Source: Hespellia sp. (GTDB lineage Bacteria > Bacillota > Clostridia > Lachnospirales > Lachnospiraceae). Taken from it: a DNA stretch of 64,000 bases. Each line of letters begins with the position of its first letter. Position 1 is the stretch's first letter. Below are positions 23,299 to 25,388 of the stretch, piece after piece. A program made the position numbers and the translations under genes. Below the pieces are notes generated by a model. That model worked only from the letters and a program-made list of their open reading frames with translations, was not told the origin of the DNA and searched no databases. The DNA lies in assembly GCA_028694105.1 (NCBI GenBank), contig JAQUUC010000005.1, positions 37,700 through 101,699 of the forward strand, in the 5' to 3' direction.

Positions 23299-23937
23299 TT
23301 ATAATTTTGAATATCCAAATCCATTTACCATTGCGTCAATCTTCTGCCCTGTCCTGCACATTGGACAGTCGTGAGCCGGATACGCCGCGTAATCCGGAAT
23401 ATCCTGATTTCCAAATATTGTCACAACCTCCATCCCGGCTACCTTCGTAACATTACTGAAAACTGCACAGATTCCGCATACTTTTCCGCCATAATAAAGA
23501 ACCGCATCAATACCTTTCGTGATAATGGAACCGGTCACGAGCATATCCGTCAGAACAATGACCTGCTGTCCTTCCACCAATCTCCGGTTATTATCGCGGA
23601 ACATAATCTGGCCCATCTGATTAAATTCAGGTGTAACGACAGAAATATTCATTCCTTCATTCACCGAGCCACGGAAATGATCCGACAATTCTTCCGCCAT
23701 AAATGTTCCAATAACCTGCGTCTCGCCCATACACACAATTGTGCTGACCGGAATGTTCTCATAAGAAGCAGCCAGCGTCTTTGCTGTCTCACGCGCATTA
23801 TTGTGGCGGCACTTCACCGTCGACATATCAATGTACGTATTCACATGCGCATTAGTCGTAACGAAATGTCCATTCATATACTTGATACGTGCCTTAGGGT
23901 TCTTTTCTGATCTCAAATCCTGTAATCTTGCTTCCAT
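23299..23937 (-). CDS. Type I phosphoribosyltransferase-fold protein (PyrE-like, degenerate PRPP loop)
   Basis: GHF.T...H...YID resembles PyrE. PRPP loop reads VIVLTDMLVTG. C-terminal CPMC. Start set at ATG 23937. Confidence 0.7.
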   Translation of the reverse strand: MEARLQDLRSEKNPKARIKYMNGHFVTTNAHVNTYIDMSTVKCRHNNARETAKTLAASYENIPVSTIVCMGETQVIGTFMAEELSDHFRGSVNEGMNISVVTPEFNQMGQIMFRDNNRRLVEGQQVIVLTDMLVTGSIITKGIDAVLYYGGKVCGICAVFSNVTKVAGMEVVTIFGNQDIPDYAAYPAHDCPMCRTGQKIDAMVNGFGYSKL

Positions 23938-24058
23938 AGTATGCACTTCCTTTCTTGAATGCTATCCGTAGTATTGTTATTTTTATTGTATCACAACCGA
24001 AAAAAAATGTATATGGACTTCATTCGTTCTCCAATCCACTTCTGGAAGGACTGGGCTA

Positions 24059-24343
24059 TTTGGTGCAAGTTGGAGTGAGTGGATTTCGGGCGTGTGCTGT
24101 GGATAAGGGCATTCATTGGAGCTTTAGAGTTGTTTAAAAAATAAGAGACGATAGATTGAGGGGACACATGTATTTCAAATACATGTGTCTAGTGATGTCC
24201 AGAGTAAGAATCATCAGATTCTTGCTCGTATCATCACGGTACTCAACCTATCGTCTCTTATTTTTCTAGCAACTCTTAGCGTCCAATTACAGCCCACAAA
24301 CACAGCACACGCCCGAAATCCACGGACTCCAACTCACACCAAA
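24059..24343. repeat. 285-bp fold-back element (102-bp imperfect inverted arms around two internal hairpins); REP/MITE-like or structured ncRNA
   Basis: Arms 24059-24160 and 24242-24343 align without gaps, 83/102 identical by manual count. Inner 13-bp perfect inverted repeat gacacatgtattt-c-aaatacatgtgtc at 24163-24189 and a second hairpin at 24192-24237. Confidence 0.85.
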
Positions 24344-24353
24344 AAACTCTAAC

Positions 24354-25388
<1,035 letters not shown>

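Follow-up and report, generated by a model that had tools for sequence, protein, structure and literature searches.

What is the long, branched fold-back that lies directly behind ilvC in this Hespellia genome: a mobile repeat, a transcription terminator, or a structured RNA? Interspersed palindromic repeats are familiar from Proteobacteria, Neisseria and streptococci, where they have been studied in depth; in the dominant gut Clostridia they have received hardly any attention. The window analysed here is a 64-kb stretch of DNA (contig C75:37700-101699 of the source genome, G000, which comprises 3.2 Mb in 93 contigs), and the fold-back is its only inverted repeat of 30 nt or more. The original prediction, made from the letters of this stretch alone, had described a 285-bp unit and suggested a non-autonomous REP/MITE-like or attC-like single-stranded DNA element, or else a structured non-coding RNA.

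The fold-back behind ilvC

The features of the locus, in window coordinates, are these:

24354..25376, minus strand: ilvC (ketol-acid reductoisomerase), the gene upstream of the fold-back, with its TAA stop at 24354-24356 (ORF list, Pfam)
24344..24353, minus strand: degenerate 5' terminus, decayed to gttagagttt (alignment of 22 and 31 sense-oriented copies)
24268..24343, minus strand: 5' outer arm on the ilvC strand, which pairs with 24059-24135 and holds the conserved GAGUUGGAGUCCGUG block
24139..24267, minus strand: core three-way junction, 129 nt (match to covariance model R1, covariation)
24139-24161, pairing with 24243-24267: basal stem P1, with the A-run and the U-run on its sides
24192..24237, minus strand: P2-P3 hairpin with the conserved tip AAUC-UGAU-GAUU
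24163..24189, minus strand: P4 hairpin, a perfect 13 bp with a UUGAA-type loop, whose stem covaries between subfamilies
24059..24138, minus strand: 3' outer arm on the ilvC strand
24017..24058, minus strand: conserved 3' tail, the start of a ~75-90-nt linker between the two elements of composites (BLAST and alignment)
23985..24013, minus strand: promoter-like site TATACA-17-TGnTACAAT, outside the repeat, for the downstream 212-aa gene

The geometry originally read from the sequence is confirmed. The arms (24059-24160 and 24242-24343) are 102 nt each, ungapped, complementary at 83 of 102 positions (81%) and separated by 81 nt; the perfect blocks of 23 and 18 bp are present and can be read directly in the sequence; and the 81-nt centre holds the perfect 13-bp hairpin (24163-24189) together with the two-tier hairpin (24192-24237; 21 nt, 76%). 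Folded as the minus strand, the element reaches a minimum free energy of -177 kcal/mol, and as the plus strand -181; dinucleotide shuffles give -74 and -77, respectively (z about -21).

Two further descriptions were correct only in part. A length of 285 bp fits the arms but not the unit, which is larger on both sides: about 42 nt of left flank (24017-24058) is conserved among other copies, a tail that we aligned with copies C, F and G and with the composites of the congener G003, and on the right, where ilvC ends 10 nt beyond the arm (24343), the family's terminus extends to the ilvC stop codon at 24354-24356. The family consensus for those 10 nt (24344..24353) is (A)ATTGYGATTTAGTG, with stops in all three frames. 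Likewise, the absence of a U-tail is true of the outer end but not of the interior, where on the ilvC strand the inner stem is followed by UUAUUUUUU, and on the opposite strand by UUAUUUUU.

The identity of ilvC is secure (Pfam KARI_N, E = 8e-78; KARI_C, E = 2e-59), and ilvN is positioned upstream of it. All ORFs within the element are chance ORFs of at most 60 aa. There is no transposase near the post-ilvC fold-back, so that mobilisation, if any, must occur in trans. The 212-aa gene downstream of the element (23302-23937, minus strand) has no Pfam match at E <= 1e-5; it also adjoins ilvC in the congener G002 (70% nucleotide identity) and lies at another place in the congener G001. The region of its promoter-like site aligns with, and is kept in, element-free G002.

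A repeat family in Lachnospiraceae

The fold-back is not single-copy, a point on which its interpretation as a repeat had been made to depend: G000 contains six copies of this type and about four of a second fold-back family, fam2. BLAST recovered five copies at full length, with 74-100% identity, and two fragments limited to an arm, and a covariance model of the core, R1 (129 positions, 49 pairs), added a sixth copy at C20:21819-21948; its match to the ilvC copy itself (G000:C75:61838-61966) scores 141.5 bits. Among congeners, the family is abundant in G003, at about 40 copies, and absent from G002; G001 shows two weak matches only. A search of 185,579 species genomes, with the source genome itself withheld, for the exact 23-base centre pattern returned only the Hespellia sp. 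MAG STD2_159, which is G003. R1 was positive in six of 401 Lachnospiraceae genomes, sampled at one per genus (five of 400 genera); all 398 genomes from the rest of the class were negative, in runs whose sensitivity was limited by the scoring of 8 candidates per genome. One of these positives, G148, represents another Lachnospiraceae genus and carries at least 30 copies. In G003, identity between copies at unrelated loci reaches 99.6%, which indicates recent proliferation of the family. Plasmid and phage collections yielded no match to the element, nor did an exact-pattern scan of JGI metagenomes. The description as REP/MITE-like is therefore apt insofar as the element is non-coding, multi-copy and patchily distributed.

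Identity with a known non-coding RNA, by contrast, was not borne out: a scan of the locus and of five composite loci against Rfam 15 gave no family at threshold. The only matches, MIR8562 (71 bits against a threshold of 211) and MIR821 (62 against 249), are plant miRNA families, and we dismiss them as generic long-hairpin artefacts far under threshold. A hammerhead ribozyme, brought to mind by the motifs CUGAUGA and GAAA, was rejected because both motifs lie in hairpin loops rather than junctions, and no Rfam hammerhead matched at E <= 10; a K-turn or C/D-box reading of GUGAUGA fails in that the sequence forms a Watson-Crick helix, with a compensatory change in copy L056. Our literature search found no description of such an element. 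The repeat family is real and, so far as Rfam 15 and the searched literature go, uncatalogued.

Structure and covariation

Copies across the family share one plan. The 5' terminus shuts off every reading frame in about 16 nt; its consensus reads (A)ATTGYGATTTAGTGTAGAG in the principal subfamily of Hespellia and GGGAATTTAGTTCTTGAAGAG in G148. An outer stem of about 77-100 bp follows, bulged and with conserved symmetric internal loops, and encloses a core in constant order: the basal stem P1 with its A-run and U-run, the P2-P3 hairpin and the P4 hairpin, then a short tail. The P3 tip, AAUC-UGAU-GAUU, is near-invariant in Hespellia and can still be made out in three further genera as well as in the second family. 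Ascertainment explains part of its invariance in alignment A1, as those copies were gathered with the P3 pattern, but the tip is also identical in 21 of 22 copies of the BLAST-collected set.

All stems covary, as the original prediction had proposed to check. Among 28 distinct core sequences, 32 of 49 core pairs carry compensatory double changes, compared with 20.2 after shuffling and 8-12 when the partner is slid; P4 alone has double changes in nine of its 11 pairs. Paired cells make up 97.3% of the core alignment against 80.3% after shuffling, and none of 500 shuffles reaches any of these measures, although arm-to-arm conversion in a DNA palindrome can mimic covariation, so that the pattern is no proof of selection on RNA.

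The second family, fam2 (~290-330 nt), adjoins several copies of the first, scores 78-79 bits with R1 when filters are off, has the same hairpin order and is homologous to it. Copies of fam2 lie outside the window at G000:C78:16981-17265, C85:28343-28672, C12:10412-10687 and C75:28195-28401, and also at L025:1160-1460; they start with AATTGTGATTTGATTTAGTGGAAGAC directly past stop codons and have the three-way-junction architecture of the first family. Both Hespellia and G148 often contain composites, in which two elements face each other with their 3' ends and the 5' termini (ATTGYGATTT...AAATCRCAAT) become the inverted ends of a unit of ~660 nt. Composites sit between convergent genes, and fam2 takes part in them head-to-head with the first family.

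Position relative to stop codons

The placement of the family follows a strict rule. In 19 of 22 copies, an ORF on the sense strand stops between -16 and +11 nt from the arm end, and in these the orientation of the element relative to the gene is always the same. Measured from the core, a stop lies 62-88 nt upstream in 24 of 31 Hespellia copies; at random positions, a similarly placed upstream window contains an ORF stop in no more than about 6% of cases. The rule holds beyond the genus: in G148, 12 of 18 copies have a stop between -17 and +6 nt from the terminus, and the copies of two other genomes, G377 and G336, are spaced from the stop as in Hespellia. On the 3' side of the element, stops do not cluster.

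Comparison with element-free orthologues shows that ilvC and five other genes retain their native stop position, from which it follows that the unit starts at the 3' edge of the stop codon and does not truncate genes. The upstream genes share no common function. Nor is TTGYGATTT a general post-stop signal: it occurs 145 times in the genome, four of them near stops, and two of those four are element copies. The family abuts stop codons in a fixed orientation, a property that the original prediction missed, as it did the A-run/stem/U-run core. We know of no DNA-level mechanism that would place an element precisely at the 3' edge of a stop codon.

The stops themselves differ between genera. In G148 (L118-L134) the abutting stops are mostly TAG, in the context TAG(N0-2)GGGAATTT, as tallied at element copies alone; Hespellia copies are mostly preceded by TAA or TGA.

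Terminator signature

The arrangement of A-run, GC-stem and U-run around P1 is conserved in all genera, and at least four U follow P1 in 12 of 13 remote copies and in most Hespellia copies, with weak U-runs in two subfamilies. Relatives have plain terminators at corresponding sites. G002 has a canonical terminator 27 nt past ilvC, a stem of 14 bp (8 G-C) followed by a T-run, and a hairpin with a T-run was seen by eye after ilvC in G001; behind ilvC in G000 there is no terminator besides the element. At nine sites that are filled in G003 and not in G000, G000 has six plain hairpin terminators, two deletion remnants and one pair of convergent genes about 10 nt apart. Downstream of the 31 copies, the first 120 nt never contain a simple terminator, whereas the same crude finder has a baseline of 12%. 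A transcript cut after the U-run retains the predicted core fold. Because the A-run, stem and U-run are conserved, relatives use plain terminators at the same sites and the truncated transcript still folds, we interpret the core as an intrinsic terminator, bidirectional and with an elaborated loop, whose termination activity we infer. At these sites the element has replaced ordinary terminators, and it decays to mini-hairpins.

One of the two remnants is a ~75-nt mini-element outside the window, at G000:C27:13891-13943, of which the terminus and inner stem alone are left. It has a stop codon on one side and an ordinary bidirectional terminator on the other, and its orientation is opposite to that of the full composite at the orthologous site of G003.

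Turnover at orthologous sites

Both G000 and G003 carry a copy at the ilvC site, but from different subfamilies: the two are 78% identical while the ilvC-side flank is 94.6% identical, and the G000 copy is 90% identical to non-orthologous G003 copies. A second orthologous site likewise holds different subfamilies, and at a third the two species share one subfamily. One composite has opposite orientations in the two species. Copies thus turn over at orthologous sites. Subfamily swaps, the inversion and the deletion remnants together suggest that copies are being lost from G000, whereas in G003 they have been amplified.

None of the compared genomes offers a clean empty site, because the closest ones are too diverged, and exact-protein look-ups for strain variants led back to the same MAG only. 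No target-site duplication could be defined, and near-identical copies showed no direct repeat at their junctions.

Candidate mobilising enzymes and the folded strand

If the element moves in trans, a recombinase or HUH gene might be expected near other copies, as the original prediction had it. No gene recurs beside copies: the only neighbours found repeatedly belong to common paralogue families (MATE, ABC), and there is no recurrent transposase next to copies. Nor did we find an ORF-bearing or autonomous version in G000, G003 or G148, where all BLAST and model matches are at most 470 nt long. The suggested likeness to attC does not hold up either: five positive genomes have no integron integrase (TIGR02249, best score 98 bits, cut-off 265), the genes on either side are core genes whose synteny is conserved, cassette arrays are absent and the order of core-site motifs is wrong.

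G000 does encode a single-copy RAYT (REP-associated tyrosine transposase) outside the window, at C79:14457-15205 (NF047646, 88 bits; cut-off 80), with a 67% identical orthologue in G003; neither element copies nor other obvious cognate repeats lie beside it. A second RAYT-like gene outside the window (G000:C55:20304-21326; about 254-283 aa) scores 71 bits, just below the NF047646 cut-off, and lies between 107-nt inverted repeats with a GGGGACGTAGTATAG... hairpin that occurs at about 8 places in the genome; this gene and its repeats look like a separate REP/RAYT-like system in a Lachnospiraceae. RAYT-like genes are found in five of six element-positive genomes and in 70 of 401 overall, a weak association, for which genome size and the shared genus of two positive genomes are confounders. 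In G148, with its 30 or more copies, there is no RAYT-like match at E <= 1e-20. An IS200/IS605-type pair, tnpA (142 aa) and tnpB (418 aa), is located at G000:C85:29561-31259 between a sigma-factor gene and another ORF; as a mobiliser it appears unrelated, being 760 nt from partial copy F with the sigma-factor gene in between.

The argument that G.U pairs reveal which strand folds stands for the ilvC copy (five on the minus strand, two on the plus) but fails at the level of the family. Hespellia arms have 69 G.T against 112 A.C mismatches on the sense strand, and 28 of 31 Hespellia copies fold more stably as the antisense strand; the arms of G148 have 89 G.T against 30 A.C on the sense strand and no energy difference. 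Since the signals of the two genera disagree, sequence does not reveal which strand folds.

Discussion

Among described repeats, REPINs and REP-BIMEs mobilised by RAYT (Bertels and Rainey 2011, PMC3116915; Bertels et al. 2017, PMC5581495) resemble the element in being non-coding extragenic palindromes with long hairpins and many copies. Both form subfamily 'populations' within a genome and persist at orthologous sites, often near gene 3' ends, and the enzyme would be the product of a single-copy gene acting in trans. REPINs have no target-site duplication, and none could be defined for the element. The REP-associated RAYT groups 2 and 3 are those clearly tied to abundant repeats (PMC5581495). 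However, the element is about three times larger (285-330 nt versus about 100 nt), its centre is a branched three-way junction and its host is a Lachnospiraceae; no RAYT gene is flanked by its copies. It also has no universal GTAG-type 5' tetranucleotide, GTAG being found only in the terminus of one subfamily, and it does not contain the short REP doublet (about 20-40 nt).

Bacterial MITEs that are transcribed together with neighbouring genes include Correia/NEMIS in Neisseria, ERIC in enterobacteria, RUP and BOX in pneumococcus and bcr1 in the Bacillus cereus group. These too are small, ORF-less and present in dozens of copies with inverted termini; they occupy transcribed intergenic DNA near stops and form RNA hairpins, and some serve as terminators or processing sites. 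Our element shares the terminal inverted repeats, the small size, the lack of an ORF and dispersed copies that differ in presence and absence; it differs in that no TA or other duplication was seen and no parent IS with the same termini was found in G000, G003 or G148. To our knowledge, it has no sequence relationship to those families, and neither placement in one orientation at zero distance from stops nor a three-way-junction core is a feature of theirs.

Bidirectional intrinsic terminators, for their part, share the A-run, GC-rich stem and U-run at the base of the core and the position at an operon end; P1 followed by UUAUUUUUU provides such a GC-rich stem and U-tract at the end of a transcription unit. 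Unlike an ordinary terminator, whose loop has 3-8 nt, the element has a branched loop of 81 nt, sits inside a further 77-bp stem and is a repeated, mobile-like sequence.

Taken together, these comparisons and the observations above lead us to give about an even chance to the reading that the fold-back is a copy of a non-autonomous palindromic 'terminator cassette' of MITE/REPIN type, present in a few Lachnospiraceae lineages. On the ilvC transcript, the basal stem with its U-run would act both as the terminator and as a structure that protects the 3' end, and P1 would terminate in both directions; the outer arms and conserved termini would serve propagation by an enzyme acting in trans, possibly of HUH/RAYT type or another that recognises hairpins. 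This mobility and its putative enzyme we infer. Most likely the element both serves and spreads as a terminator module, and the family fits best, as a variant, among the bacterial elements of palindromic-repeat/MITE/REPIN kind.

The strongest competitor, though a rather unlikely one, is that the element is a cis-acting structured 3'-UTR RNA coupled to translation termination, with growth in copy number being secondary; it could stabilise the mRNA, sense the terminating ribosome and so set read-through, or insulate as an RNase III-sensitive structure on read-through transcripts. Such a role would account for the fixed orientation and for a 5' end 0-10 nt past stops in independent genera, a distance inside the footprint of the terminating ribosome, and would suit an asymmetric three-way junction whose hairpin order is constant in both families and all genera, loop motifs (C-UGAU-G and UUGAA) kept while stems covary, and copies kept at orthologous sites across species. 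REP elements of E. coli located within 15 nt of stop codons are also said to affect translation, as reportedly described by Liang, Rudd and Deutscher in 2015. It sits poorly, however, with sister species that lack the element and use ordinary terminators, with the deletion of copies in G000, with a strand signal that runs in opposite directions in Hespellia and G148, and with upstream genes that have no function in common. An independent small RNA gene with its own promoter, antisense or derived from the 3' UTR, seems highly improbable: despite the highly structured fold and the stabler antisense strand in Hespellia, no conserved promoter exists in or beside the unit, the sole promoter-like site faces the downstream gene, no Rfam family matches, and the strand signal is reversed in G148.

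A DNA-level alternative would regard the unit as a single-stranded recombination site, attC- or REPIN-like, whose folded hairpin is recognised by a tyrosine recombinase or an HUH (RAYT) enzyme, its RNA-level properties being incidental. We think this improbable, though less so than the small RNA gene. The long imperfect fold-back with conserved symmetric internal loops, the exchange or inversion of copies at orthologous sites, and the RAYT of G000 (with RAYT-like genes in most positive genomes) are all consistent with it. So is the likeness to integron attC sites, which are also imperfect fold-backs placed directly after ORF stops in constant orientation, with a variable and sometimes branched centre. 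Yet there is neither IntI nor any cassette array, the neighbours are core genes, the element is two to four times longer than attC, and its motif GTTGGAG...CTCCAAC (on either strand) is the reverse of RYYYAAC...GTTRRRY. As for RAYTs, the C79 gene has no adjoining copy, the second RAYT-like gene has a different repeat on its flanks, copy-rich G148 has no match at E <= 1e-20, and the association is confounded.

Returning to the terminator module, what sets the family apart is the combination of a covarying three-way junction, a bidirectional-terminator signature and precise, oriented stop-codon placement that recurs in separate genera. A bolder proposal, which we consider unlikely, is that the family recognises precisely where ORFs end on their 3' side, as either a mobile terminator cassette that homes to stop codons or a new class of ~300-nt three-way-junction 3'-UTR RNA that interacts with the terminating ribosome; homing might possibly be coupled to translation or transcription termination, or proceed through an RNA intermediate. 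If either were true, it would apply to dozens of copies per genome in some gut Lachnospiraceae. Should the positional rule reflect targeting, it would imply an insertion mechanism that has not yet been described; should it reflect function, it would imply a widespread 3'-UTR device that links translation termination, transcription termination and mRNA fate. The R1 model would, moreover, allow gene 3' ends and terminators to be better annotated in Lachnospiraceae genomes and MAGs.
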